Shown: positions 1-10,610 of the stretch, in pieces
Position numbering within the stretch: position 1 is the first letter of the stretch
How the letters are laid out: every line of letters starts with the position of its first letter
From: a virus
Taxonomy: Duplodnaviria; Heunggongvirae; Uroviricota; Caudoviricetes
Direction: 5' to 3' (one strand)
Virus record (IMG/VR): IMGVR_UViG_2531839178_000012
Span: 1 to 10,610 of that record
Length of the DNA: 10,610 nt
Translations under genes and position numbers: made by a program
Notes under the pieces: generated by a model
What the model was told of the DNA's origin: nothing
The model's database searches: none
The model's input: the letters and a program-made list of their open reading frames with translations, nothing else

Positions 1-1389
1 GTTTTTCCGGGCTTCATGGAGTTCTGCCCGCAGTTCCTGATATTTCGCATCAACAGAATTTACCTGTGACTGAGCATCCAGCGGCTGCGTGTTCTGATGA
101 TGTTCAGTTGCATTCGGTTCCACTGTTTCAGCCGTTGCCTGTTCATCTGTCATTGCGCCAGATGGTTGTGGTTTTTCTCCATCGTCCTGTTTTCTTTCTT
201 CTGTTACTCGCTGCGGCATCGGGGCAGAGGAGCGACCGCAGGCAATATCCACGATTTCCGGATCAGGGTTGGCATGATCGGTTTCAGTCAGTACTTTGTC
301 CAGATATTCAGTGACGTGTGCGGGGATGACCTCGATCCCAATTGGTGCTTCTTTCACGGACGCAACCACGATGGCGCGGGAATAATCCAGCCCGCCAGGC
401 ATGGTGATGAATTTGTCGCGGAAAACAGAAAAGGGTGGTTTATTTTCAGCGATAATTTCCTCAATGCGTTTAGCGTGTGCCGGATGAAGGTTATAGATGT
501 CCACGTCCATTGAACGGGCCAGTACGCCAGTGGCTACATCGCGCGTCAGTGACGTCAGATCGTGGACGAAACCTTCGCCGCGATCGGTGAGGTTCCCGCC
601 GCCAGCATTAGCACCGGAAGTCGTGCGAGTGATGCGTGAAACACGATTCCCTTTTCGCCATTCTTTTGTCAGAAGACCGCGATCAATGTGTTCGGTATCC
701 AGCCAGGCTGAAATGAAATTCTTAAATTCATAGGGCTGATGTTTTTTCGTGATAGAGAAAACTGCCTTAATTGCATCAGTCAGGCGGAGCAGGGCGGCAT
801 TATCCAGAGTTGTCGGTTCTGCCATGCCGCGTATGGCCAACAGCAGATTCTGGACATAGCTGTTTTCCTGATCCATCTCAAGAGCAGTAATGTGTTTGCG
901 TTGTTCACGGGTGGCATGATGCAGGTATTTCCGATCCCCGGCAGCATACGTAAAAATGTGCAGAAGACGCTGTGTGAACCGCAAAGTGGCTACAGAGACT
1001 TCGCAATCCTGGCAATCCTCGTGGGCGTCTGCCTGCGCGTTTTCTTCCTGGCCTCCCGCCAGTTCTTTGGTTTCTTGAGCATTATCCTGGTGGTGAACGT
1101 CGTCTGGCGCTGCTCCCGGTTTTAGTTCCCATGTCATGGAGTCTTTGCTGAGTTGATAGCGTTCACTCCAGGTAAAATCGATCTCACCTTCAGGGGGAAG
1201 GTCATTAACGACAGGAAAATTTGTGGCAACAGCTTTAAAATAGTTGCTCAGTTTTTTACCTGACTTAACGAGCAGATAGTCCAGAGTGGTGCTGGTCGAT
1301 TCAAAATCGTCGCTTGCCCACAGGACGACGTCAGGTTCACCGGATGATTTTTTCGCTTTCCGTAACAGGAAGAGTGGTTTTGTGCTCAT
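1..1389 (-). CDS. Large hypothetical prophage protein, at least 463 aa; the 3' end of the gene lies beyond the left window edge
   Basis: ATG at 1389..1387 preceded by GAGG about 10 nt upstream. I checked every in-frame triplet from 1389 down to 1 and found no stop codon on the minus strand. The several overlapping plus-strand ORFs in 66..1125 are typical antisense artefacts of a real gene. Acidic, low-complexity segment in the N-terminal third. Family not recognised with certainty. Confidence 0.7.
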
Positions 1390-1459
1390 TGTTTTTTAAC
1401 CTCAACTCAGATTAAAATTACTGCGAGTGATGAATAAATGTCCCAGGTTCTTCACTCAG

Positions 1460-1489
1460 GCCTGCACACTGTGCAGGCTTTCTTTTTTT
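1460..1489 (+). terminator. Intrinsic-terminator-like hairpin oriented for plus-strand transcription
   Basis: Stem gcctgcac (1460-1467) / gtgcaggc (1471-1478), 3-nt loop, followed by tttcttttttt (1479-1489). On the minus strand the same hairpin is preceded, not followed, by the U/A run. Confidence 0.35.
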
Positions 1490-1517
1490 CAGATTTCACC
1501 TTTTAATTTCATTGCAA

Positions 1518-1763
1518 TCAGAGTTGCCAGAAATTCGGCTTTTTTTCTGCGGGCAGATTATTTCCGATGTAAACCAGGCACATTTTTGTGGCACCTTCAA
1601 CAAGAGTTTTAAAGTTTCCTGATAGACCGTCGATATCAACCACAGTGAATGGGGTTTCTTTATTTTCTGTTTTAATTACGTAGCCAATATGCTTTCCTTC
1701 CAGGTAAACCTCGTGAATAATGTTATCAGTAGTTGCAACAGTGGCTTCATAATTGGTGTTCAT
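1518..1763 (-). CDS. Hypothetical small protein, 81 aa
   Basis: ATG at 1763 with AAGGAG 6 nt upstream; stop TGA at 1520..1518. Same strand as, and just upstream of, the large ORF. The ORF track's longer version (start 1811) lacks a comparable ribosome-binding site. Confidence 0.55.
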   Translation of the reverse strand: MNTNYEATVATTDNIIHEVYLEGKHIGYVIKTENKETPFTVVDIDGLSGNFKTLVEGATKMCLVYIGNNLPAEKKPNFWQL

Positions 1764-1837
1764 GTTTTTCTCCTTAATTAAGGTTGAGCGAATCCCTGCC
1801 ATTGCTGGCATAAATTCAGTTTCGAATAGTCAGTTAA

Positions 1838-2119
1838 TTAAAGTTCGTGTGCCATCTGGTCTTTTTCGGCGCAGATTTCACTACAATATTTGCGTTTCTT
1901 TTTCCTCATCATGGTTCCGTGCATGTAAATAAGTTCAGCAGTGTAAGCCTTATCAGGGCTTACTTGTCTGTCACACAGGCCATAAGCACAGGGAATTAAA
2001 TCGGGATCACCTTTCTGCTGGAGGGTTTTTTTGATTATCCATAACAATTTTTTGATTCCGGTGTGTGTTATGGTCTGCTGAGGTGCAGAGGTAAAACAAT
2101 AATCAAGCATAGGGTTCAT
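1838..2119 (-). CDS. Cys-rich small protein, 93 aa, possible zinc-binding (Cx4C ... Cx3C)
   Basis: ATG at 2119 with GGAG 8 nt upstream, starting 16 nt after the Rha-like stop (operon-like). Cys pairs CAYGLC and CSEIC about 30 residues apart, plus a basic patch RKKKRK. Confidence 0.55.
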   Translation of the reverse strand: MNPMLDYCFTSAPQQTITHTGIKKLLWIIKKTLQQKGDPDLIPCAYGLCDRQVSPDKAYTAELIYMHGTMMRKKKRKYCSEICAEKDQMAHEL

Positions 2120-2135
2120 ATCCGTAGCTCCATTT

Positions 2136-2684
2136 TTATTTTAAAGAAAGTAATTGTTCCACAGTCATATTTTTAATTGCGCCCCGGTTAACAAGAGTCC
2201 ATCCCTGTTTTTCCAGATAAAACCGGAAAGTCTCCAGGGTACAGACCAGTGCGCCATCAGGAACGGTTTCGGTGAATTCGACATTGCCGAATTTGTCGAA
2301 GTGAACAACCAGAGTGCGACCATCACCCGGAATCATCTTGTCAGCAGGTGGGGTGTTATTCTGGCGCAGTTCGGCCTCCATGCGGTCGAACTCAGCAATG
2401 TAGGCTTCCTTGAATGCGGCGGCTTTTTTGCCAGTGAAGCCCATCACCAGGAAAACGAAGCCGTTTTTGGTGATTTGGTACATTGGGAGTTTGCGCCCGG
2501 TTGAGTCGGTGTATTCGCTCGCCTCAAAATTGAGGGCAGTAAATTTATCTGAGCATTCAATATTTGCGATGGCACGTAACACATTGTCGTGTCGTTTGTG
2601 GAAGAACTCTGCAACCGCAACAGACGTAGTGACAGCGCGACCGTTTTCTACGGTTACACAAGGGTGAGAAAGGGTAGTAGCCAT
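2136..2684 (-). CDS. Rha-family phage regulatory protein (Phage_pRha-type N-terminal domain), 182 aa
   Basis: Segment VAEFFHKRHDNVLRAIANIE ... MYQITKNGFVFLVMGFTGKKAAAFKEAYIAEFDRMEAELR matches Rha-family motifs I recall (KRHDNVLR, GF.LLVMG.TGKKA). ATG at 2684 has GGAGG 8 nt upstream and puts the Rha domain at the N-terminus, as is typical. The track ORF extends in frame to 2978 (280 aa); see findings. Confidence 0.8.
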   Translation of the reverse strand: MATTLSHPCVTVENGRAVTTSVAVAEFFHKRHDNVLRAIANIECSDKFTALNFEASEYTDSTGRKLPMYQITKNGFVFLVMGFTGKKAAAFKEAYIAEFDRMEAELRQNNTPPADKMIPGDGRTLVVHFDKFGNVEFTETVPDGALVCTLETFRFYLEKQGWTLVNRGAIKNMTVEQLLSLK

Positions 2685-2850
2685 GATGGCAGCCTCCGCG
2701 ATGAATTTGATTAACTCACCACCGGAGGTAGCAATCTCATGGGTGGTGAGACGTACAGGGTTGCTACAACCGGTCATCACGGAACCCGGCCAGTCTTGCG
2801 ACTGCCCCGCACGCCCCACCATAATTTGAATGTGGCTGTGCATTACGCAT

Positions 2851-2873
2851 AAAAAAACCGCCTGAGCGCGGTT
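2851..2873 (-). terminator. Possible intrinsic terminator, minus-strand orientation
   Basis: Stem aaccgc/gcggtt with 6-nt loop (2856-2873); on the minus strand it is followed by T7 (complement of the A-run 2851-2857). Modest stem (4 GC pairs). It lies inside the optional N-terminal extension of the Rha ORF, so it conflicts with that longer gene model. Confidence 0.3.
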
Positions 2874-3379
2874 ATGCGCCGTGAATGACTTCGGGGTAGC
2901 AATCCCGGCACCCGTTTTATGAGGTGCAGGTGCACTATAATTCCACCCGTTCTGGTTTTCAATAGCTACATTCAACATTTTCTCTTTCCTTTCATCACCG
3001 AAGTGAACTTTGTTGATGCGGTGCCTGGTGCCTCCAGGTGACGTTAACCAGTTAATAATTAACGCCGGAATAAGGGATTTTCCTTACTGTTTTAACTGTT
3101 CCGCGTGCGCTGAGCCGCATTCACCGCATCACAAAATTCACTTTAAAAAGGGCGGACATCAGCCAGCAATTAAACCGATGCCGCCAACTGGTACTTCACA
3201 CAGCAATGTCGTTATTTACAACCGGAGGCGCACTCCCACCATTTAAATTTAACAGACAAGACCGACTCTTTATGGATACCGGAAATGCGCCTTCGTGTTG
3301 TGCCCGGTTTTATTTCACCACCTCCGGGCTTTGGTGGTATCTTTACTGAAGTTCTCGCACAACCAGTAAGGAAATGAAT

Positions 3380-3463
3380 ATGCCAACGTATCTCGCCAGA
3401 GTAGAACTATATAATGCTGAGCCAGAGGATTACGAAGGGCTTCATAAATATATGCTCTCACTA
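3380..3463 (+). pseudogene. 5' fragment of a small gene interrupted by IS630 (reconstituted ORF 78 aa)
   Basis: ATG at 3380 with AAGGA 8 nt upstream; the reading frame runs to the IS630 junction at 3463/3464 and continues in frame at 4619 after the IS (stop TGA 4769-4771). With the IS present the ORF stops at 3476-3478 inside the IS terminus. Confidence 0.55.
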
Positions 3464-4616
3464 AATAGCTGCGCTTAATACCGCTACACTTTTGCCAGTC
3501 CATGTTTGCCTCCGGGGAATGGGCTGACGGTTTCCATAAAATGGCGAACTTTTTTCAACAGTTGCCACATTGAGCGGCACTGATGATTACGCGTTATTGT
3601 GTCGTGAAGTGCCTGCCATAGCCGTTCAACATGATTCACCCATGGCGAGTAAACCGGCTGATAAATGCCCCTGAACTTCGGGTTCTCCTTCAGCCAGCTC
3701 TGTGTTTCCCGGCTTTTGTGGATAATGTAGTTGTCCACGATCAGCGTGATGGTTTTCGCCCGACGGTATGTCGCTTTAAGCCGCTTCAGCAGGCTGATGA
3801 ACAGCGCCGAACTTTTGCTGTTGCCGCCCACATAGCTGACTTTACCTGTCCCGCTGTGCAGCGCTCCGGCCAGATAATATTTTTCATTCTGTCCCGGCGT
3901 GACCACCCGTTTTTGCTGTCCGCGCAGTTGCCAGTCCGCACCGATTTTGGGATGAAGATGGATATCCACTTCATCTTCATAAAAGACCGGATGCTCTGCG
4001 CTGCATTCGTCCAGTGCTTTATGGATTGCTGCCATCTTTTCATCTTTATGCGGGTCACGGATACGCAGAGTTGGCGCAGCCCTTCGCCACACAATCCCCG
4101 CAGACGGCAACCAGCGGCGAACGGTTCCGGCATTTAACTGGCAACCGGTTATCTCATTGATTTTTATTGCCAGCAGTTCTGTACTCCAGCGTGAACGCTG
4201 GTAGCCAAAGTCGCCGGGAGAATGTTTTACCAGCTCACGTAACAGTGTGCAGATATGCTCAAACGGCCAGCGACGGGCACGCCCGGCAGGTAATGATTTC
4301 AGTCCCTCAACACCCGACTGCGTGAACCAGTTAATCCAGCGTCCAACAGAGGAACGGGCGCAGCAGAGCGTTCTGGCAACGTCGCTGACACGGTCGCCCC
4401 GGTGCAGCATCAGCATGGCAGTCAGTCTGCGGGCATAATTTTTATCGTGTGTTTTATGGATGGCTTTCTGCATCAGGCGTCGTTCGTCACGGGAAATTGG
4501 TGCTATGATCGGCATTGCTCAGTCCGGTTGGTGATTTGTTTTGATTTGGCGATTGTTCAGATCGCACAATCCGGGCTAAGTTCCCTCAAAGTGATCTACT
4601 ATTCCGCGCAGCTATT
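3464..4616 (-). mobile_element. IS630 (Tc1/mariner-related IS630 family), complete copy, 1153 bp
   Basis: Terminal inverted repeats AAATAGCTGCGC (3464-3475) and GCGCAGCTATTT (4605-4616). Flanked by TA (3462-3463) and TA (4617-4618) inside a C-TA...TA-G context, i.e. insertion into CTAG with TA duplication. Length 1153 bp agrees with IS630 as I recall it. Contains one 343-aa transposase ORF. Confidence 0.9.
3484..4515 (-). CDS. IS630 transposase, 343 aa
   Basis: Single long ORF filling the element. Sequence (MPIIAPISRDERRLMQKAIHKTHDKNYARRL ... DNYIIHKSRE ...) matches my recollection of the IS630 transposase, with an N-terminal HTH-like region and a C-terminal DDE-type region. Confidence 0.9.
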   Translation of the reverse strand: MPIIAPISRDERRLMQKAIHKTHDKNYARRLTAMLMLHRGDRVSDVARTLCCARSSVGRWINWFTQSGVEGLKSLPAGRARRWPFEHICTLLRELVKHSPGDFGYQRSRWSTELLAIKINEITGCQLNAGTVRRWLPSAGIVWRRAAPTLRIRDPHKDEKMAAIHKALDECSAEHPVFYEDEVDIHLHPKIGADWQLRGQQKRVVTPGQNEKYYLAGALHSGTGKVSYVGGNSKSSALFISLLKRLKATYRRAKTITLIVDNYIIHKSRETQSWLKENPKFRGIYQPVYSPWVNHVERLWQALHDTITRNHQCRSMWQLLKKVRHFMETVSPFPGGKHGLAKV

Positions 4617-4618
4617 TA

Positions 4619-4771
4619 GCATCCAGTAATCAGGTTAGCGAATTAACAATGTGGGTTAAACGACTGGTCAGTCAACTGAAAAAAGCTAAGCCTGACTGCA
4701 AATTACCGGAGAAGGCGATGGATTACCTGAAGCGAAATGGACTGATAAGCGTGGAGGATGTTTTACGATGA
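4619..4771 (+). pseudogene. 3' fragment of the IS630-interrupted small gene
   Basis: In frame with 3380..3463 once IS630 and one TA copy are removed. Encodes ...ASSNQVSELTMWVKRLVSQLKKAKPDCKLPEKAMDYLKRNGLISVEDVLR. Stop TGA 4769-4771 overlaps the ATG of the next ORF. Confidence 0.5.
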
Positions 4772-4851
4772 CCTGGCCTGAAGCATTCACCACGGTAGGA
4801 ATTGCAATGGCGGTGGCGCTGGTTGTGTATTCGATTTGCCGCTGGGGGTAA
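4768..4851 (+). CDS. 27-aa hydrophobic peptide (MTWPEAFTTVGIAMAVALVVYSICRWG), single predicted transmembrane helix
   Basis: The ATG overlaps the upstream stop in an ATGA arrangement (translational coupling). Hydrophobic core of about 17 residues. Followed by a hairpin at 4858-4876 (ccagccc/gggctgg). No recognisable family; existence of the gene is uncertain. Confidence 0.35.
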   Translation: MTWPEAFTTVGIAMAVALVVYSICRWG

Positions 4852-4880
4852 GGTAAACCAGCCCCGAACGGGCTGGTAAT

Positions 4881-5167
4881 TTAAAGAGGTAATTTGATGA
4901 TGGCTGTCAGTGCGCCAACAGCAACGACGAGCATGCCACCAAATCTGACGGTCAGTTGCAGGCTGAGTTTGTCTATTTTTGCATCAAGGGCTGCAATGTC
5001 GTTTTTAGTTCAGTTCTGACATCATTTAGGTCGCGCTTTGTGGCGACTTCTGCGGCTTCGTGAGAATCTTTCACTGCGGCAGATATAGCGCGCGCCTGAG
5101 CTGCCGGCATTCCTGCGGCTTCCAAGGTTTCGACGAACTTCAGTGTATCAAAATAGACCTGAGCCAT
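4881..5167 (-). pseudogene. DUF1640-like small tail-anchored protein, disrupted by a -1 frameshift in a homopolymer
   Basis: N-terminal ORF 5167..4973 (MAQVYFDTLKFVETLEAAGMPAAQARAISAAVK...) with GAAGGA 7 nt upstream of the ATG. The C-terminal part (DIAALDAKIDKLSLQLTVRFGGMLVVAVGALTAIIKLPL, stop 4883-4881) is in another frame. One extra A/T in the T5 run at 5002-5006 would restore a roughly 96-aa ORF. Confidence 0.6.
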
Positions 5168-5218
5168 GTTAAATCCTTCGTTGTTGGGGAATATTGTTAG
5201 TTTAGCCTGTAGTGGCTG

Positions 5219-5248
5219 TTGACGACAACGTTAATCCGGGGCTATATT
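5219..5248 (+). promoter_or_regulatory. Sigma70-type promoter, copy 1 of a duplicated late-promoter-like module
   Basis: -35 TTGACG (5219-5224), 18-bp spacer, -10 TATATT (5243-5248). Homologous to the promoter at 9400-9429 that directly follows the Q-like gene. Confidence 0.5.
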
Positions 5249-5293
5249 CCTCACGCGCCAGCAAAATCTGGCGTCGGGATTGGCGTCCCGGAT
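5234..5293 (+). repeat. 60-bp exact direct repeat, copy 1 (promoter -10 plus initial transcribed region)
   Basis: atccggggctatattcctcacgcgccagcaaaatctggcgtcgggattggcgtcccggat is identical at 5234-5293 and 9415-9474. Flanks are related upstream (CTGTTGAC[G/T]) and diverge downstream. Confidence 0.9.
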
Positions 5294-5331
5294 GTTTACG
5301 GAGCGATATGAGACGCGTCCGCGTCTTTTTT
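5255..5331 (+). ncRNA. Predicted short terminated transcript (about 77 nt), analogous to a lambdoid 6S/pR' leader RNA
   Basis: Predicted start about 7 nt after the -10; two hairpins (cgccag/ctggcg and cggga/tcccg), then an intrinsic terminator at 5311-5331. Existence of the transcript is inferred, not observed. Confidence 0.35.
5311..5331 (+). terminator. Intrinsic terminator (tR'-like)
   Basis: Stem agacgc (5311-5316) / gcgtct (5321-5326), loop gtcc, then T-run to 5331. Confidence 0.5.
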
Positions 5332-5494
5332 CATATCGTTTGCACAGTCACATTCGCGATTTATGGCGGGCTGTGTGGGGGAGCCGAAAGGCTCGCCGGT
5401 TTCCGTACCCGGTTACGCCAACCCTGCACAGTTCGCCACCAGTTCGATTGGCGTCGTCGGTGGCGATAATTTCCAAATGTACGGAGTTATCGTT

Positions 5495-6043
5495 ATGACC
5501 ACTCAAATCTCTGTTGAAACTCTCTCCCCGATCGCCCATAACCAGATACCTGTTATTACCACTGAACTTTTGGCGCAGTTGTACGGCACAGAAGCGATTC
5601 GCATTCAGCAAAATCACGCCAGAAACGCTGAACGTTTTATTGAAGGTAAGCATTTTTATAAGTTAGTGGGCGATGAGCTTAGAGGTATGAAGCACAGACT
5701 ATCTTTAAGCGAGTCTGTGAAAATTGCCCGTAACGTTCGCTCCCTCATTCTCTGGACAGAACGCGGAGCAGCACGTCACGCCAAAATGCTCGAAACCGAT
5801 CAGGCGTGGGAAGTATTCGAAAAATTGGAAGACTGCTACTTCAACCAGTACGAGAAAGATCGGGCTACGGGGAAAATGAACATCGATATTCACCTGGCGA
5901 TCCGTGATGATAAAACTGCCTTCATCCGAAGTTATGCGCCTGGTCAGCTGGTGACGGTTGAAGAAGCCCTGATGTTGCTTAAATCGCGCGGATGGCTGGT
6001 AATGCCGCGAGATGAATTTGCCGGAAAATTAATGGAGCTTTAA
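5495..6043 (+). CDS. ORF6N-domain (KilA-N-like) phage protein, 182 aa
   Basis: ATG at 5495 with GGAG upstream, in frame with the longer track ORF. Motifs LAQLYGTEAIRIQQNHARNAERFIEGKHFYKL ... LILWTERGAARHAKMLETDQAWEVFEKL fit the ORF6N family pattern as I recall it (L..LY...RN.ERF, LWTE.G). Confidence 0.8.
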   Translation: MTTQISVETLSPIAHNQIPVITTELLAQLYGTEAIRIQQNHARNAERFIEGKHFYKLVGDELRGMKHRLSLSESVKIARNVRSLILWTERGAARHAKMLETDQAWEVFEKLEDCYFNQYEKDRATGKMNIDIHLAIRDDKTAFIRSYAPGQLVTVEEALMLLKSRGWLVMPRDEFAGKLMEL

Positions 6044-6057
6044 CTGGTTAAATTAGC

Positions 6058-6083
6058 CCCGATATGGGAATTCCCATATCGGG
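6058..6083. repeat. 26-bp perfect palindrome (cccgatatgggaa|ttcccatatcggg) centred on GAATTC
   Basis: Perfectly self-complementary, 15 nt after the ORF6N stop codon; no U-tract follows it. Confidence 0.85.
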
Positions 6084-6110
6084 AGAACATTACCACCGGG
6101 GATAAAATGA

Positions 6111-6139
6111 TTTGCGGTGAAAGGGAAGTTAAGTAGAAT
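6111..6139 (+). promoter_or_regulatory. Candidate promoter of the hok mRNA
   Basis: -10 TAGAAT (6134-6139) with a weak -35 (tttgcg, 6111-6116). The predicted start near 6146 gives a 5' end GGGUGCUUGAGGCU..., resembling the 5' end of plasmid R1 hok mRNA as I recall it. Confidence 0.3.
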
Positions 6140-6204
6140 TGCTGCGGGTGCTTGAGGCTATCTGTCTCAGGCATGAACACCAAAAGGCAGATGAGAAGCC
6201 CCAG

Positions 6205-6265
6205 TTAACATTACGCGTCCTGCAAGACGCTTAACATTAATCTGAGGCCAATTTCATGCTAGACA
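6205..6265 (-). ncRNA. sok: Sok-like antisense RNA (antitoxin of the hok locus), predicted
   Basis: Minus-strand promoter -35 TTGCCT (6299..6294), 17-bp spacer, -10 TAACCT (6276..6271), mirroring the R1 sok promoter layout. The transcript would overlap the mok start codon and ribosome-binding region; hairpin 6214-6231 followed by UAAUGUUAA. Confidence 0.4.
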
Positions 6266-6468
6266 CATGTAGGTTAGCCTCTTACGTGCCGGAAGGCAAG
6301 GAGAAGCAGGCTATGAAGCAGCAAAAGGCGATGTTAGTCGCCCTGATCGTCATCTGTTTAACCGTCATAGTGACGGCACTGGTAACGAGGAAAGACCTCT
6401 GTGAGGTACGAATCCGAACCGGCCAGACGGAGGTCGCTGTCTTCGTAGACTACGAATCCAGGAAGTAA
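6256..6468 (+). CDS. mok: Mok-like reading frame (in-frame N-terminal extension sharing the hok stop), 70 aa
   Basis: ATG at 6256, in frame with and ending at the hok stop, as in chromosomal mokC/hokC. The start region is the predicted Sok target. Confidence 0.55.
   Translation: MLDTCRLASYVPEGKEKQAMKQQKAMLVALIVICLTVIVTALVTRKDLCEVRIRTGQTEVAVFVDYESRK
6313..6468 (+). CDS. hok: Hok/Gef-family type I toxin, 51 aa
   Basis: MKQQKAMLVALIVICLTVIVTALVTRKDLCEVRIRTGQTEVAVFVDYESRK is near-identical over the first 44 residues to E. coli HokD/RelF and HokC/Gef as I recall them. Confidence 0.85.
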   Translation: MKQQKAMLVALIVICLTVIVTALVTRKDLCEVRIRTGQTEVAVFVDYESRK

Positions 6469-6545
6469 GAGTGACCGGGCGGGGAGCTGATCCCATCCCC
6501 GCCCACCTCTGATGTGTCAGGCATCCTCAACGCACCCGCACTTAA

Positions 6546-6588
6546 CCCGCCCATCGCTGTGATCTCTCAGCGTTTCGGCGGGTTTTTT
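6546..6588 (+). terminator. Intrinsic terminator of the hok transcript
   Basis: Outer stem cccgcc (6546-6551) / ggcggg (6577-6582) with inner stem cgctg/cagcg, followed by T6 (6583-6588). A 9-bp GC hairpin (6477-6504) lies just after the hok stop. Confidence 0.6.
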
Positions 6589-6608
6589 GTTGTTTATTTC
6601 CGGTGAAT

Positions 6609-6636
6609 TTGATTTGCGCACCTTCGCAGATAGAAT
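6609..6636 (+). promoter_or_regulatory. Candidate sigma70 promoter of the nin-like operon
   Basis: -35 TTGATT (6609-6614), 16-bp spacer, -10 TAGAAT (6631-6636), about 80 nt upstream of the 6718 start codon. Confidence 0.35.
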
Positions 6637-6717
6637 CGACTCACTTAAGTAGCGCGCAGGGAGAAGAGGGATGGACCCCGAACAGGGGAGAGCTATTTAT
6701 CTGGAAGGATTCTGAAG

Positions 6718-7005
6718 ATGAAAATCGAAGAATTGCGTGAAATTTTTAGTGAAAATGGCCTCTATGCTGTGCGCGTTGAGAATGGAGCGATTGTCAGCCA
6801 TTGCCGCATTAGATGTTTGCAATCTCAACAAAGGAAGAGCGGTGCTGTGTTATTTTATTTTTGTAATGGACTTCTGACGGACGGTTTTATTTTGCGTGAG
6901 GACGAATTTGTCACATCATTACGGGTTTTGAAAGAGATTGGTTTTAAGGCTGGTTTTCTGCTTTTGCTGAAGAATAAACTCATCTACAATCTTGAGCAGG
7001 ATTGA
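6718..7005 (+). CDS. Hypothetical small phage protein, 95 aa (occupies the position of rem in Qin-like prophages)
   Basis: ATG at 6718 with GGAAGGA 8 nt upstream. The assignment is positional only (hok - this ORF - DUF1367 - ... - Q). Confidence 0.55.
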   Translation: MKIEELREIFSENGLYAVRVENGAIVSHCRIRCLQSQQRKSGAVLFYFCNGLLTDGFILREDEFVTSLRVLKEIGFKAGFLLLLKNKLIYNLEQD

Positions 7006-7043
7006 ACTCCTGCTGTGTAACACCGTGCCACCGGAGAAAGCCG

Positions 7044-7643
7044 ATGGCACATATACAACTGGTCAAACAAACCTTTTCCGGATTACTTCTCCCGGCGACG
7101 CCGGAGAGTTGCGATTTTCTGCATCAAATCAAAATAGGTGAGTGGATACACGCAGACTTTAAGCGTGTGCGTAACTACGCATTCCACAAGCGTTTTTTCA
7201 AACTCCTGCAACTGGGTTTCGATTACTGGACTCCGGTCGGTGGGGCGATCACGCCTCGCGAACGAAAACTGGTGTCCGGTTTCGTTGATTACCTGTGTGA
7301 ATCAGTAGGCCGGGAACATACGCCAGCTCTGAGCGAAGCCGCAGAGCAATATCTGAATACAGTTGCGACACGCAGAACCCGTGATACGGCATTGCTAAAG
7401 TCGTTTGAGGCTTTCCGCGAGTGGGTAACCATTCAGGCCGGATTTTACACCGAGCATATTTATCCTGATGGTAGTCGTGGGCGCAGGGCAAAATCTATCG
7501 CATTTGCGAACATGGACGAAACCGAGTTTCAGCAGGTTTATAAATCTGTACTGAATGTGCTGTGGAACTGGATCCTGTTCCGTAAATTCTCCTCTCCGGA
7601 GGAAGTCGAAAATGTGGCCGCGCAGCTACTGGAGTTTGCGTAA
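7044..7643 (+). CDS. DUF1367-family phage protein (YdfU-like), 199 aa
   Basis: ATG at 7044 with GGAG 7 nt upstream. Family assignment from recalled similarity and the conserved position upstream of DUF1364 and Q. Confidence 0.75.
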   Translation: MAHIQLVKQTFSGLLLPATPESCDFLHQIKIGEWIHADFKRVRNYAFHKRFFKLLQLGFDYWTPVGGAITPRERKLVSGFVDYLCESVGREHTPALSEAAEQYLNTVATRRTRDTALLKSFEAFREWVTIQAGFYTEHIYPDGSRGRRAKSIAFANMDETEFQQVYKSVLNVLWNWILFRKFSSPEEVENVAAQLLEFA

Positions 7644-7933
7644 TGGTGGATTTACGTAAAGCGGCGCGGGGGCAGATGTGCACCGTCAGAATTCCTGGCT
7701 ACTGCAATCACGATCCGGAAACGTCTGTGCTGGCGCATTACCGACTGGCGGGAACGTGCGGAACAGCGACAAAACCACACGATATGCAGGCGGCGATTGC
7801 CTGTAGCTCATGCCACGATTTAATCGACGGGCGGGTAAAAACAAGCGATTACACCAAAGAAGAATTACGCCTGATGCATGCAGAAGGTGTTTTTCGCACG
7901 CAAGAAATCTGGAGAAAGGAAGGTTATTTATGA
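7643..7933 (+). CDS. DUF1364-family protein (YbcO-like), 96 aa
   Basis: TAATG start overlap with the previous gene. Motifs DLRKAARG.MC.VRIPG.CN..PETSVLAH.RL ... IACSSCHD match YbcO of prophage DLP12 as I recall it. Confidence 0.8.
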   Translation: MVDLRKAARGQMCTVRIPGYCNHDPETSVLAHYRLAGTCGTATKPHDMQAAIACSSCHDLIDGRVKTSDYTKEELRLMHAEGVFRTQEIWRKEGYL

Positions 7934-8254
7934 TTTACCCAACAAATACAGGCAAAAGCGGGGAACACCTTCGTCTCACCACGCTGGAAAGTGTCTGGAT
8001 TCAGGGAAAACTGCGCATGTGGGGGCGCTGGTCGTATATTGGCGGCGGTAAGACGGGGAATATGTTCAACCAGTTGTTGGCCTCTAAAAAGCTGACAAAA
8101 ACGGCAATTAACGAGGCGCTCCGGAGGATGAAAAAAGCAGGTCTGGACAAACCTGAACTTGAGGCTTTTTTGCGGGATATGATCAACGGCAAGCAAAAAA
8201 GCTGGCTGGTGCATTGTACTGATGCAGAGGCGTTATGCATTGATCGGGTGATTA
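7930..8254 (+). pseudogene. Q-like late antiterminator, 5' part, interrupted by an IS5-family element
   Basis: ATGA start overlap with the DUF1364 gene. The frame runs to the IS junction at 8254/8255 and, after removing the IS and one TA, continues in frame at 9174 to the stop at 9401-9403 (about 184 aa). A WG.W motif near the N-terminus and the position after a ybcO-like gene and before a promoter module suggest a Q-type antiterminator; family assignment is tentative. Confidence 0.55.
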
Positions 8255-8265
8255 GGCTGTGTCCC

Positions 8266-8571
8266 TTAATTACGTAAGCGTTGATAAAAGAGTCGGATGC
8301 AGCCCAGTTTCACCATCGCCAGGTAATTTCTCGCCGTTTTGTCGTAACGCGTGGCGATGCGGCGATATTCTTTCAGCCGCCCAAAGCACCGTTCAACGAC
8401 ATTACGATTGCAGTACGCATCACGATCAAGCTGTGCACGTCCATCCGATGCCATTTTCTCATTTGACTTTCGGGGGATTACTGCCTTTATACCGTTATTT
8501 TTCAGCTCGTTGCGCAATGCGCGCCCTGAATACGCTTTATCAGCCAGTACCGCATGTCCACGGCGTTTCAT
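8266..8571 (-). CDS. IS5-family transposase, C-terminal ORF (OrfB)
   Basis: C-terminal motif VVERCFGRLKEYRRIATRYDKTARNYLAMVKLGCIRL resembles the IS5-family signature. The frame is open upstream to about 8646 and overlaps the OrfA frame region, suggesting frameshift expression or a degenerate copy. Confidence 0.6.
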   Translation of the reverse strand: MKRRGHAVLADKAYSGRALRNELKNNGIKAVIPRKSNEKMASDGRAQLDRDAYCNRNVVERCFGRLKEYRRIATRYDKTARNYLAMVKLGCIRLFYQRLRN

Positions 8572-8661
8572 GCTGCCGTTCTGACGCTGAACGCCAATCC
8601 CGTCCAGAAGTCGTTGCGCGAACTGGCTTTCATGAGCTTGTCCGGGGGCTTAGCACGATAT

Positions 8662-9111
8662 TTATCGGGAGGCCACTTCCGTCTGTTGCCAGATGGATTT
8701 TGGTGCCAAAACCGCCGCGAGAGCGACCCAGCCCATTATCTCCGTCGATATCGGGATGTTTTTTTGAGCACCGGCGGCACATTTCAGCGCCCGGATATTA
8801 CTGCCATCCAGCGCGGTGGCAGACCAGTCAATAAAGCCGTTTGCATCAAGTAGCGAAAGCAACCTGTTGAAAATAATATTAATCACGCCTGACTTAGACC
8901 ATCGGTTAAAGCGGTTATAAACAGTTTTCCATGACCCATATCGTTCGGGTAAATCGCGCCATGGTGCACCGGAACATAACACCCAGAACATGCCATTGAT
9001 GATTTTACGGTGCTCAGCCCATGGGCGTCCGGCCCGTGGTGTGGCGGGTTCAGGAGGTAACAGGGGCTTGATGATGGTCCATGCCTCATCGGGAAGGTCG
9101 TAGCGAGCCAT
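8662..9111 (-). CDS. IS5-family transposase, N-terminal ORF (OrfA), 149 aa
   Basis: MARYDLPDEAWTIIKPLLPPE ... APWRDLPERYGSWKTVYNRFNRW is a typical IS5-family N-terminal motif set. Confidence 0.7.
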   Translation of the reverse strand: MARYDLPDEAWTIIKPLLPPEPATPRAGRPWAEHRKIINGMFWVLCSGAPWRDLPERYGSWKTVYNRFNRWSKSGVINIIFNRLLSLLDANGFIDWSATALDGSNIRALKCAAGAQKNIPISTEIMGWVALAAVLAPKSIWQQTEVASR

Positions 9112-9173
9112 AGTTCAATATGTTGTGTAAACAGACAGTTACTATAGCTCAGATGATTAAGGGACACAGCCTA

Positions 9174-9403
9174 GTGAAGTGCTGGCAGAACACCCAGGAT
9201 TGATTTGTATCCTCCGGCAACGATATGAAGGGAGGGGGATGACTAAGCGAAAAATGGCTGAATTGCTGAATGATTCACACCCTGAGTGGTGTTACGCCAC
9301 GTGCCGTAATCGCATAGATGCGTGGTTGAAAATGGCAGAGTTTATGCTCTATCTGCCGATGCGTGATGCATTCTCTTCCGGGGATTTAAAAACTGTCTGT
9401 TGA
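9174..9403 (+). pseudogene. Q-like antiterminator, 3' part, separated from the 5' part by the IS5-family insertion
   Basis: In frame with 7930..8254 across the reconstructed insertion site. The track's ORF 9179..9403 begins at a GTG read as M, so it is not an independent gene. Confidence 0.5.
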
Positions 9404-9429
9404 CTCAATCTGTTATCCGGGGCTATATT
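9400..9429 (+). promoter_or_regulatory. Late-promoter-like sigma70 promoter (pR'-like), copy 2, immediately after the Q-like gene
   Basis: -35 TTGACT (9400-9405, overlapping the Q stop codon), 18-bp spacer, -10 TATATT (9424-9429). Lambda pR' also has a TTGACT -35 as I recall it. The transcribed region is identical to copy 1 for 60 bp. Confidence 0.5.
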
Positions 9430-9474
9430 CCTCACGCGCCAGCAAAATCTGGCGTCGGGATTGGCGTCCCGGAT
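9415..9474 (+). repeat. 60-bp exact direct repeat, copy 2
   Basis: Identical to 5234-5293. Identity ends a few bp before the IS911-like element begins. Confidence 0.9.
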
Positions 9475-9481
9475 ATCGAAA

Positions 9482-10421
9482 TGAGGTGTACTGGCAATAG
9501 CGGACACTACCATTTGTCTTTTTTTAAGCAGCCATCTGATGATATTTTTCCCTGAAGGCTGCCGGGGAGATATTCCCCAGACGAGAGTGACGACGCTGAC
9601 GATTGTAGAAAATCTCAATGTATTCCCGTATTACTGAGATGGCTTCATCCCGGTTATTAAAACGATAGTGGCTCAGGCTCTCATTTTTCAGCGTTCCCCA
9701 GAAGCTTTCCATCGGAGCGTTGTCGTAACAGTTACCTTAACGGCGACATTGGATGTTTTCAGACCAAACTGCTCCTGTATGACCCGGTAATCGTATGCGC
9801 AGTACTGTGAACCTCGATCAGAGTGGTGGATTAGCCCGGCAGGTGGGCGCTGGCTCCTGAGCGCCATAAACAGGGCTTTACCTGTCAGCTCTTTTGTCAT
9901 GCGCTCTCCCATGGCGTAGCCGACAATTTTGCACGTATAAACATCTTTGATGCCAGCGAGGTACAACCATCCCTCCTGTGTGGCAACATACGTCAGGTCC
10001 GCCACCCAGACCTGATTTGGTGCTGTAGGAGCGAACGTCTGGTTCAACAGATTTGGCGCAACTGGCAGATTGTGGTTCGGGTTCGTAGTCGCTCTGAACT
10101 TGCGTTTCTGCTTACAGCGTAGCCTTAGCTCCTTACGAAGACGTGCCAGTCGGTCACGACCAACGATGATGCCATTCTCTGCCAGCTCCGTCTGGAGCCG
10201 CCGGGTTCCATATGTTTCGCGAGTGCGGATATGTGCCACCTTAATCTCCAGTTTTAGCCGCTCATCACTTTGTTTTCTGTCTGAGGGTTCATGCTGTACC
10301 CAGTTGTAATAACCGCTCCTGGATACACCAAATACCTGACACATCGCTTCAATGGGAAATTGTTGTCGCCATTGTTCGATTAACGCGTATTTTTCAGCGA
10401 CTCCTGTGCAAAATACGCTGT
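9482..10421 (-). mobile_element. IS3-family (IS911-like) element remnant, truncated at its orfA side by IS30
   Basis: Contains an IS911-type orfB on the minus strand and only the last codons of orfA. The terminus near 9482 starts TGAGGTG (IS3-family ends begin TG). The inner boundary is set by the IS30 end at 10422. The left boundary is approximate. Confidence 0.7.
9524..10344 (-). pseudogene. insO: IS911-type transposase OrfB (InsO-like), inactivated by indels
   Basis: ORF 10344..9688 (MCQVFGVSRSGYYNWVQHEPSDRKQ ... HSDRGSQYCAYDYRVIQEQFGLKTS) and ORF 9712..9524 (MESFWGTLKNESLSHYRFNNRDEAISVIREYIEIFYNRQRRHSRLGNISPAAFREKYHQMAA) are two halves of one IS3-family OrfB. Several small indels near 9700-9730 break the expected SRKGNCYDNAP segment. 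Confidence 0.8.
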
Positions 10422-10610
10422 TGTAGATTCAATCTGTCAATGCAACACCCCTTTCAATTATCTCTTTCGGTGTTTTGAACTTCAGTGTCTTTCTCGGTCT
10501 GTTGTTTAGCTGAGCAGCAACCAGATCTAGTTCATGTTGAGTATATTGGGCAAGACATGTCTTTTTAGGAAAGTACTGCCGAATTAGCCCATTTGTGTTC
10601 TCATTTGTTC
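10422..10610 (-). mobile_element. IS30, terminal 189 bp of a copy that continues beyond the right window edge
   Basis: The terminus TGTAGATTCAATCTGTCAATGCAACACC starting at 10422 matches the IS30 end as I recall it. The transposase C-terminus is encoded on the minus strand. Confidence 0.75.
10429..10610 (-). CDS. insI: IS30 transposase, C-terminal fragment (5' part of the gene is outside the window)
   Basis: Minus-strand translation ends ...FPKKTCLAQYTQHELDLVAAQLNNRPRKTLKFKTPKEIIERGVALTD, the characteristic IS30 transposase C-terminus (LNNRPRK..L.F.TP.E). Stop at 10431..10429. Confidence 0.75.
   Translation of the reverse strand, partial: TNENTNGLIRQYFPKKTCLAQYTQHELDLVAAQLNNRPRKTLKFKTPKEIIERGVALTD

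Follow-up and report, generated by a model that had tools for sequence, protein, structure and literature searches.

A probable Rac-type recombination operon headed by a Rha gene behind an isrK/C4 antisense-RNA switch

We analysed a 10,610-nucleotide stretch of prophage DNA (IMG/VR record IMGVR_UViG_2531839178_000012, positions 1 to 10,610), referred to below as the window, in which four genes occupy the first 2,684 positions. The cluster most likely belongs to a Rac-type lambdoid prophage of E. coli/Shigella, of which it forms the early-left (recombination) operon, with a Rha cassette upstream. It is a cluster that is already known, and its Rha gene lies behind a known isrK and C4 antisense-RNA switch. 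An earlier note on this DNA had described four same-strand genes with short gaps, which proved correct: all four are on the minus strand, with spacers of 16, 74 and 128 nt. The same note could not assign the last three proteins to families, whereas curated families identify them as YdaE, RacC and RecE. Matches to curated families were obtained for all four proteins, with E values from 1e-25 to 1e-207, far beyond chance. RefSeq already lists this order in E. coli as 'RecE family exodeoxyribonuclease', 'hypothetical protein', 'YdaE family protein' and 'Rha family phage regulatory protein'. The coordinates of the genes and of the associated RNA features are given in Table 1.

Table 1. Positions of the genes, RNAs and signals discussed in the text
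Feature	Position	Strand	Remarks
recE, N-terminal 463 codons of exodeoxyribonuclease VIII	1..1389	-	ORF leaves window at left end
Terminator-like hairpin and T-run	1458..1490	+	Opposite strand, racC-recE spacer
racC, frameshifted	1518..1763	-	81 aa instead of 91
Long-form ydaE, 93 aa, Cys-rich	1838..2119	-	YdaE domain after 41-aa N-terminal extension
Rha-family regulator, antirepressor type, 182 aa	2136..2684	-	Phage_pRha
Rha leader, two C4 target sites	2693..2736	-	Complementarity search
C4 antisense RNA	2739..2826	-	Rfam RF01695, 79 bits vs gathering score 45, E 1.4e-14
isrK sRNA	2851..2927	-	Rfam RF01394, 64.8 bits vs gathering score 50
Sigma-70 promoter-like site TTGAAA-17-TATAGT	2934..2962	-	Promoter scan, 10/12 matches
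Second isrK/C4-type cassette	5242-6043		RNA part 5242-5500, ORF6N protein 5495-6043

Identity of the four genes

The first gene encodes a Rha-family regulator of the antirepressor type at the head of a prophage operon, as had been proposed. Its product matched Phage_pRha (Pfam PF09669) with an E value of 1.5e-32 (112.4 bits compared to a gathering score of 29.9) and TIGR02681 with an E value of 9.1e-34 (115.8 bits compared to 45.95). It also matched PHROGs 995, 518, 373 and 63, annotated as transcriptional regulator or anti-repressor. A BLASTP comparison with Gifsy-1 AnrP (STM2616) gave an E value of 0.049. As Rha is not an orthologue of AnrP, its antirepressor activity is assumed from the family annotation. 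Upstream of its start, the Rha frame continues without a stop through an orf45-like AUG at 2822 as far as 2978, and this longer frame corresponds to the 280-aa ORF found in relatives in RefSeq. This 'Ash + Rha' ORF of the databases very probably includes translated isrK and C4 RNA genes.

The Cys-rich 93-aa protein encoded by the second gene is a long form of YdaE. The NCBIfam model YdaE_coli (NF041288) matched residues 42-93 (E 6.5e-25, 87 bits compared to a cutoff of 35), PHROG 6751 covered the whole protein (E 1.6e-46), and homologues carry the precomputed Pfam assignment PF27493:YdaE. Alignment of 10 sequences revealed a Cys4-type domain, C44-x4-C49 ... C79-x3-C83, in which all four Cys residues are invariant; this small Cys4 protein probably binds zinc. 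Only the long form has the N-terminal extension, which is conserved. Its 41 codons gave pN/pS values of 0.16-0.24, and in E. coli and Salmonella long YdaE as a whole shows purifying selection (pN/pS 0.16-0.29). KilR was considered as the origin of this extension and rejected, there being no sequence similarity between the two. AlphaFold2 modelling of the 93-aa protein, for which the homologue search gave only 9 clusters, yielded a pLDDT of 43.8 and a pTM of 0.27, too poor for a fold search. YdaE also scored 21.4 bits against Pfam Rtr1/RPAP2, below the cutoff of 33, with C-x4-C...C-x3-C/H spacing in common; we regard this similarity as a lead only.

The third ORF exists as an 81-aa reading frame, as reported previously, but this is not its native length. 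Judged from its sequence, it is a frameshifted member of the 91-aa RacC family rather than a member of another family. The RacC model PRK09790 (NCBIfam) matched at positions 1-78 of 91 with an E value of 4.7e-41, and the score of 138.9 bits fell below the full-length cutoff of 171. DNA alignment revealed a 1-nt deletion within a run of A residues, A7 at 1546-1540 compared to A8 in Rac-SA53. The resulting frameshift substitutes the last 13 residues, and the native C-terminus, AEFLATLIAMKLKGEI followed by a stop, is readable in the +1 frame. The closest E. coli racC copies carry the annotation 'frameshifted'. In the AlphaFold model of the 91-aa RacC (pLDDT 85.4) a helix extends from 72 to 87, and the frameshift is predicted to destroy it.

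The large protein, for which an acidic low-complexity region had been correctly noted (approximately aa 95-130), is the N-terminal part of RecE. RecE is a 5'->3' dsDNA exonuclease that acts with its partner RecT in single-strand-annealing recombination. It is a well-studied phage recombination enzyme, and its domain structure has been described (PMC11611040). The ORF matched Pfam Exonuc_VIII (PF06630; E 8.7e-67, 225 bits compared to a cutoff of 25), PHROG 607 (E 1e-190) and the NCBIfam RecE model PRK09709 (E 6.8e-207), with aa 1-463 collinear with positions 1-457 of 877 of the last model. The PRK09709 score of 689 bits is lower than the full-length cutoff of 1269 bits solely because half of the protein falls outside the window. 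The C-terminal PD-(D/E)XK nuclease domain (approximately 564-866 in K-12 RecE) and recT lie beyond the window edge. The RecE part is 96% identical at the amino acid level to RecE of phage Rac-SA53, and the recE DNA is 95% identical to KU052037. A PDB sequence search with all four proteins gave no meaningful match, which for this part of RecE is consistent with the sole RecE structure, to our knowledge, being that of the C-terminal nuclease domain. The C-terminal part is intact in some close relatives and replaced or truncated in others. Because recE is truncated in several of these relatives, and is followed by Gam and an AAA_24 ATPase instead, RecE in this prophage may be non-functional.

A terminator scan found no minus-strand terminator-like site in any of the three intergenic gaps. 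The top terminator-like match of the scan was the hairpin in the racC-recE spacer, which has 10 pairs, 6 of them G-C, and the tail TCTTTTTTTC. Alignment placed a hairpin with the same outer stem at the same position in Rac-SA53. As this hairpin has no U-tail on the gene strand, it should not stop transcription of the operon. The four genes may be co-transcribed, as they lie close together with no terminator-like site between them. Silencing of racR has been found to derepress kilR, ydaE, racC, recE and recT together (PMC11014345; bioRxiv 10.64898/2026.09.06.749655).

The isrK/C4 switch upstream of Rha

In the region from 2962 to 2739, which was overlooked in the earlier note, a promoter-like site is followed by isrK sRNA and then C4 antisense RNA. 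The promoter-like site was the best within positions 1-3500 and is placed for a start at isrK; the isrK promoter of Gifsy-1 has been described at the matching position (PMC4825925). The terminator scan identified isrK's own terminator (2873..2856 followed by a U-run). The loop of the isrK hairpin at 2902-2896 is UUGCUAC, the upstream (b1-like) C4 target, and the Rfam c4-a1b1 model scored only 20.6 bits on this copy compared to 46.7. The C4 match was full-length, covering model positions 1-87 of 87.

The complementarity search identified two C4 target sites in the Rha leader. The a2-like site at 2704-2694, UCAUCGCGGAG, overlaps the Rha Shine-Dalgarno sequence (GGAGG, 2697-2693) and is complementary to the C4 loop at 2784-2774, giving an 11-nt duplex that spans the Shine-Dalgarno sequence. 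The b2-like site at 2734-2728 has the same UUGCUAC sequence as the isrK loop, and both are a 7-nt perfect match to C4 residues 2767-2761 (GUAGCAA). The RNA part of the second cassette, whose C4 lies at 5359-5443, contains other but mutually complementary pairs, UUCCGUAC/GUACGGAG and ACGCCAA/UUGGCGU. The C4-target pairings covary between the two cassettes at both positions.

The isrK/C4/Rha arrangement belongs to a known class of switch, that of P1 immI and Gifsy-1 IsrK. In immI of P1 and P7 (c4 - icd - ant1/2), as here, an antirepressor-type gene is preceded by a C4-family RNA. Sequences complementary to two short stretches of C4 occur at an upstream site and again downstream, at the ribosome-binding site. 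The cassettes in the window differ from each other in C4 specificity, as do P1 and P7. According to a passage in PMC8198154 that cites Citron & Schuster 1990, C4 blocks ant expression in P1 immI. Whereas P1 immI has icd, there is no separate icd-like ORF here, and the frame of the AUG at 2822 runs stop-free into Rha. The cargo also differs, a Rha-domain protein compared to Ant1/2, as does the host element, a lambdoid prophage compared to the plasmid prophages P1 and P7.

The Gifsy-1 isrK-orf45-anrP locus (PMC4825925) consists of isrK with its terminator, a C4/orf45 region and a regulator gene, as does the present cassette, in which C4 is the same region as Gifsy-1 orf45/STnc1160. An orf45-anrP fusion was noted for S. 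dysenteriae in the same study. In the MFE fold of the present sequence, the middle of isrK would pair with the 3' part of the C4 region, resembling inactive structure A of Gifsy-1. Unlike Gifsy-1, the Rha cassette has another antisense specificity and no adjoining Q-type antiterminator gene. In the window, it is the second cassette that encodes the AnrP orthologue, an ORF6N protein (56% identity, E 5e-68).

In the most likely mode of action, the operon of an intact prophage would be transcribed from a repressor-controlled left promoter, with the cassette contributing its own promoter and riboswitch-like control of the P1-immI/Gifsy-1-IsrK type. C4 RNA would be processed out of the same transcript and would pair with the two leader sites; as one of these pairings would cover the Rha Shine-Dalgarno sequence, Rha would be kept untranslated. 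IsrK, which carries a decoy copy of one C4 target, could shift this balance. Because the gaps are short and no terminator-like site follows Rha, transcripts from the isrK promoter may continue into ydaE, racC and recE.

Mosaic structure and state of the prophage

In Rac of E. coli K-12 and in Rac-SA53, ydaE, racC and recE have the same order and orientation as in the window; the annotated order in Rac-SA53 is recT-recE-racC-ydaE-kilR. Positions 1-1891 (recE, racC and the 3' end of ydaE) are approximately 95% identical to Rac-SA53, and the Rac segment upstream of kilR matches positions 3001-3384. Unlike Rac, the window has a 1.1-kb segment (1892-3000), comprising isrK, C4, Rha and the rest of the long ydaE allele, in place of kilR and the 5' part of ydaE, and its racC is frameshifted. 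The counterpart of this operon in lambda is the exo-bet-gam-kil region.

The four-gene stretch was present at a coverage of at least 80% in 15 of 5426 E. coli genomes, compared to 2121 with the recE-racC-ydaE piece alone and 982 with the Rha cassette alone, indicating that the parts of the cluster assort independently. The gene between long YdaE and the RecE homologue is racC in some loci and encodes an unrelated 98-117-aa protein in others. E. coli FDAARGOS_944 was the best genome match to positions 1-3100 (96.5%). The Rha cassette of E. coli CFSAN029787 is 100% identical, but the recE of that genome is different, being truncated with gam and an AAA_24 gene after it. The exact 25-mer at the Rha-ydaE joint was found in S. 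flexneri SFBU1023 and E. coli ECMA0423, which are just 92.7% identical overall. A Shigella or enteroinvasive E. coli lineage is the probable origin of the DNA.

The prophage is probably defective. The window is riddled with at least three IS elements and contains a split DUF1133 gene and a truncated third isrK cassette. The repressor (immunity) region is absent from the window, and an IS630-family element is found there (3484-4515). These features, together with the racC frameshift, raise the possibility that the genes, although rightly identified, no longer have a function and are the decaying remains of a defective prophage riddled with IS elements. A S. flexneri relative whose ydaE has a stop codon and whose recE carries IS insertions points in the same direction, as do the closest E. 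coli genomes, in which recE is a truncated pseudogene. However, the ORFs for Rha and long YdaE are intact, as is recE over its 463 codons in the window; the models for the promoter, C4 and isrK are matched over their full length; and the selection on long YdaE argues against loss of function. We consider decay without current function possible, though unlikely.

Linkage of long YdaE to Rha

The sole mildly new point of the analysis is that long YdaE is linked to Rha and does not occur together with KilR. In a small sample of loci that are not independent of one another, long YdaE was located directly after Rha and KilR was absent in 12 of 12 cases, whereas KilR was present in both of the short-YdaE loci. 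The adjacency of Rha and long YdaE was also found in 17 of 17 E. coli genomes. This pattern would be expected if Rha and long YdaE were a functional pair behind the C4 switch, like icd and ant, with YdaE replacing KilR as a small host-directed effector, e.g. a cell-division inhibitor. The 16-nt gap between the two genes and the conserved, selected N-terminal extension would fit such a pair, as would the occurrence in other genomes of the same cassette followed by kilR. Icd of P1 and KilR of Rac are each a small protein that inhibits FtsZ (PMC11897509; PMC11014345). However, the extension does not resemble KilR in sequence, the AlphaFold model of long YdaE is unusable, and the pattern could stem from no more than one ancestral recombination joint inside ydaE. 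We therefore regard a functional pair as doubtful. More speculative still is a broader proposal in which the isrK/C4 cassette may be a Rha and long-YdaE unit, placing an antirepressor and a small host-directed protein under one antisense switch as in P1 c4-icd-ant, with YdaE occupying the place of the FtsZ inhibitor KilR and perhaps acting in its stead. The promoter of the cassette might also let recE escape control by the prophage repressor, as a natural 'sbcA-like' activation.

The suggestion in the earlier note of an undescribed accessory or defence module, here read as a dedicated one controlled by Rha, is favoured by the constant adjacency of Rha and long YdaE, the RecE N-terminal homologue that always follows them and the two of four proteins without known function, but it is highly improbable given that the large protein is a recombination enzyme, that no PADLOC-DB v2 defence family matched any of the four proteins at E <= 0.01, that the parts assort independently around a variable middle gene and that the gene order was already in RefSeq. 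The note had itself named findings that would count against such a module. The large protein does belong to a well-characterised family and the small ORFs are common and conserved; a known role for the small ORFs is the one element that was not found, and structure searches gave no clue to it.

As a Rac-type recombination operon of textbook form joined to a known RNA-controlled antirepressor cassette, the cluster in itself matters little, and RecE is the label that its 'unknown large protein' should now carry. RacC and YdaE are widespread and adjoin RecE, which is much used in recombineering. That long YdaE is strictly linked to Rha and excludes KilR provides a small, testable lead.

Gene families and the mosaic joint

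Profile searches placed all four minus-strand ORFs in families, including the three that the earlier note had been unable to assign from sequence alone; its ORF coordinates and lengths proved correct on an ORF check of the window. The first ORF is Rha (PF09669, E 1.5e-32; TIGR02681, E 9.1e-34), and its matching PHROGs carry regulator or anti-repressor annotation. The others are YdaE (NF041288, 87 bits versus a cutoff of 35, residues 42–93; PHROG 6751 over its full length), RacC (PRK09790, E 4.7e-41, model positions 1–78 of 91) and RecE, exodeoxyribonuclease VIII (Pfam Exonuc_VIII, E 8.7e-67), the last being collinear with positions 1–457 of 877 of PRK09709 (E 6.8e-207). From 2684 to 1 the spacers are 16, 74 and 128 nt, and a terminator scan found no terminator-like sites on the minus strand within these gaps.

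Features of the Rha operon, the second cassette and the adjacent transposase gene
Feature	Position	Strand	Detail
Rha ORF	2684..2136	minus	182 aa
Long-form YdaE ORF	2119..1838	minus	93 aa
RacC ORF	1763..1518	minus	81 aa
RecE ORF	1389..1	minus	463 codons, open at left end of window
C4 antisense RNA, full length	2826..2739	minus	Rfam, 79 bits vs 45
isrK	2927..2851	minus	Rfam, 64.8 bits vs 50
Promoter-like site TTGAAA-17-TATAGT	2962..2934	minus	promoter scan
isrK terminator	2873..2856	minus	terminator scan
IS630-family transposase gene	3484-4515	minus	DDE_3 and HTH domains; ~500 bp upstream of isrK promoter
Second cassette c4-a1b1	5242-5294	plus	
Second cassette isrK	5255-5331	plus	
Second cassette C4	5359-5443	plus	
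Second cassette ORF6N-domain protein	5495-6043	plus	

DNA comparison showed that window 1–1891 is ~95% identical to phage Rac-SA53 (KU052037), annotated in the order recT-recE-racC-ydaE-kilR, and that 3001–3384 is an 84% match to the Rac-SA53 region directly upstream of kilR. The 1.1 kb between them (1892–3000), the Rha cassette, stands in place of kilR and the 5' part of ydaE. Other E. coli genomes, O157:H7 included, have the order Rha-kilR-ydaE(56 aa)-racC-recE, and a few have the same order as the window, Rha-YdaE(93 aa)-racC-recE. As RefSeq labels the genes there 'Rha family phage regulatory protein', 'YdaE family protein', 'hypothetical protein (frameshifted)' and 'RecE family exodeoxyribonuclease', this arrangement is already in public annotation.

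A proposed isrK/C4 switch upstream of Rha

The earlier note had missed C4, isrK and a promoter-like site upstream of Rha. A complementarity search matched the C4 loop UUCCGUGAUGA (2784–2774) to UCAUCGCGGAG (2704–2694), which overlaps the Rha Shine–Dalgarno sequence at 2697–2693. Another C4 segment, GUAGCAA (2767–2761), is complementary to UUGCUAC both in the isrK hairpin loop (2902–2896) and in the Rha leader (2734–2728). The second cassette, which is complete, has other sequences at both pairing positions, and these are mutually complementary again: UUCCGUAC pairs with GUACGGAG at the Shine–Dalgarno sequence of its ORF (start 5495), and ACGCCAA pairs with UUGGCGU. Judged from sequence, this covariation supports a mechanism of the P1/P7 type, with C4 covering the ribosome-binding site of the gene that follows it (as described in PMC8198154, citing Citron & Schuster 1990). 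C4 would thereby repress translation of Rha, a putative antirepressor. The differing pairing sequences imply that the two cassettes have different specificities, and they are probably mutually heteroimmune.

In the minimum free energy fold of 2927..2660 (z-score −4.6), central isrK bases are paired to the 3' portion of C4 and the Rha Shine–Dalgarno sequence is sequestered; this fold resembles inactive structure A of isrK-orf45-anrP in the Salmonella prophage Gifsy-1 (PMC4825925). In S. dysenteriae orf45 is fused to anrP (PMC4825925); likewise, the window frame from AUG 2822 is stop-free into Rha. However, protein comparison showed that Rha is not orthologous to Gifsy-1 AnrP (E 0.049), whose orthologue is the ORF6N protein of the second cassette (56% identity). 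Thus, the same RNA chassis bears different cargo proteins.

Transcripts from the isrK promoter would read through as far as recE, and the four genes would be co-transcribed. When RacR is silenced, kilR, ydaE, racC, recE and recT rise jointly (PMC11014345; bioRxiv 10.64898/2026.09.06.749655), which is consistent with a single repressor-controlled left operon in Rac.

A 280-aa ORF that begins at 2978, upstream of the isrK promoter, has a match to Pfam Phage_ASH ('Ash protein family') at residues 14–104 (window 2666–2939, minus), and this match coincides with the isrK and C4 RNA genes. In the second cassette, no open frame links the isrK part to the gene downstream. Translated RNA genes probably make up part of the 'Ash' domain and of the 280–282-aa RefSeq 'Rha' proteins. 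In the related Salmonella loci L014–L017 (~3298–3390; L017 733–825), Rfam identifies the RNA upstream of Rha as sRNA-Xcc1 (RF02221) rather than C4. In these loci a DicF RNA lies further upstream (L014, 2685–2736), and E. coli locus L003 likewise has DicF ahead of its cassette (7304–7354); none was detected in the window.

YdaE, RacC and RecE variants

By sequence, the 93-aa protein is a long form of YdaE in which an N-terminal extension (residues 1–41) precedes the YdaE domain (residues 42–93; C44, C49, C79 and C83 invariant in the alignment). The extension is under purifying selection (pN/pS 0.16–0.24, E. coli versus Salmonella copies). An origin of the extension from KilR was rejected, as sequence comparison found no similarity. 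The AlphaFold model of long YdaE was unusable (pLDDT 43.8). A homologue search yielded only 9 clusters; among 50,697 phage records long YdaE was not found, the matches being to the C-terminal domain only, and 17 of 5426 complete E. coli genomes contain it, each annotated 'YdaE' and 'Rha'. All 12 long-YdaE loci compared (E. coli, Shigella and Salmonella) lack KilR and have Rha directly upstream (75–100% identity) and a RecE N-terminal homologue downstream. The gene between long YdaE and the RecE homologue is variable, either RacC or an unrelated 98–117-aa protein. KilR is present in both short-YdaE loci. The whole sample of loci is small, and its members are not independent. The linkage of Rha to long YdaE without KilR may reflect one ancestral joint inside ydaE.

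The 81-aa ORF is, by alignment, a frameshifted racC: its A-run is A7 (1546–1540) versus A8 in Rac-SA53, and the native C-terminus AEFLATLIAMKLKGEI is preserved intact in the next frame. The frameshift deletes most of the second C-terminal helix predicted in the confident AlphaFold2 model of 91-aa RacC (pLDDT 85.4; five-stranded sheet and two C-terminal helices). This 91-aa form is dominant in the database (1448 member sequences), where RacC variants (P0010–P0113) terminate in all three frames at the same A-run and a second poly-A tract; many of these are singleton sequences derived from read assemblies. Such ends could be due to slippage, to homopolymer errors in sequencing or to repeated pseudogenisation. 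The region's strongest terminator-like hairpin (1458–1490, plus) lies in the racC-recE spacer, antisense to the operon. A similar hairpin is also present in Rac-SA53.

RecE is 866 aa with its nuclease domain at residues 564–866, and the function of its N-terminal domain is not known (PMC11611040). The portion in the window is therefore entirely the non-catalytic N-terminal region, which explains why a PDB sequence search returned no hits. In related prophages (L006, 5094–7308; L008 and L009, 4683–8000), the RecE homologue has no C-terminal nuclease domain, and the place of recT after it is taken by a Gam-family gene and an AAA_24 ATPase, which suggests that recombination modules were swapped 3' of a retained RecE N-terminal region.

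State of the prophage and status of the locus

In related prophages a DUF1391/repressor/cro region occupies the spot of the IS630-family gene, and the window seems to have lost its immunity region. With this region missing and racC frameshifted, the element is probably defective. A third c4-a1b1/isrK copy (9423–9524, plus) has the specificity type of the second cassette and Gifsy-1. A DUF1133 gene immediately precedes it, just as antQ precedes isrK in Gifsy-1, and the copy ends after isrK, where an apparent IS3-family element, seen by eye only, cuts it (ORFs 9524–10344, minus). The DUF1133 gene is itself split (7930–8277, profile positions 1–109; 9179–9403, positions 112–175) by an inserted element that carries IS4/5-family transposase ORFs (8266–9111, minus); DUF1367 (7044–7643) and YbcO (7643–7933) lie upstream. 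A hok/sok type I toxin-antitoxin locus (6146–6468, plus) comprises sok RNA (96.3 bits) and a Hok/gef family ORF (6316–6468, plus; E 2.4e-23).

The recE-racC-ydaE piece was matched in 2121 of 5426 E. coli genomes and the Rha cassette in 982, and the whole stretch 1–3100 was at least 80% covered in 15; thus, the four genes are not a conserved unit. PADLOC defence models gave no matches to the four proteins. We conclude that the locus is no candidate for a new defence system but an ordinary Rac-type recombination operon, of a kind that public genomes already annotate, joined to a known RNA-controlled antirepressor cassette.
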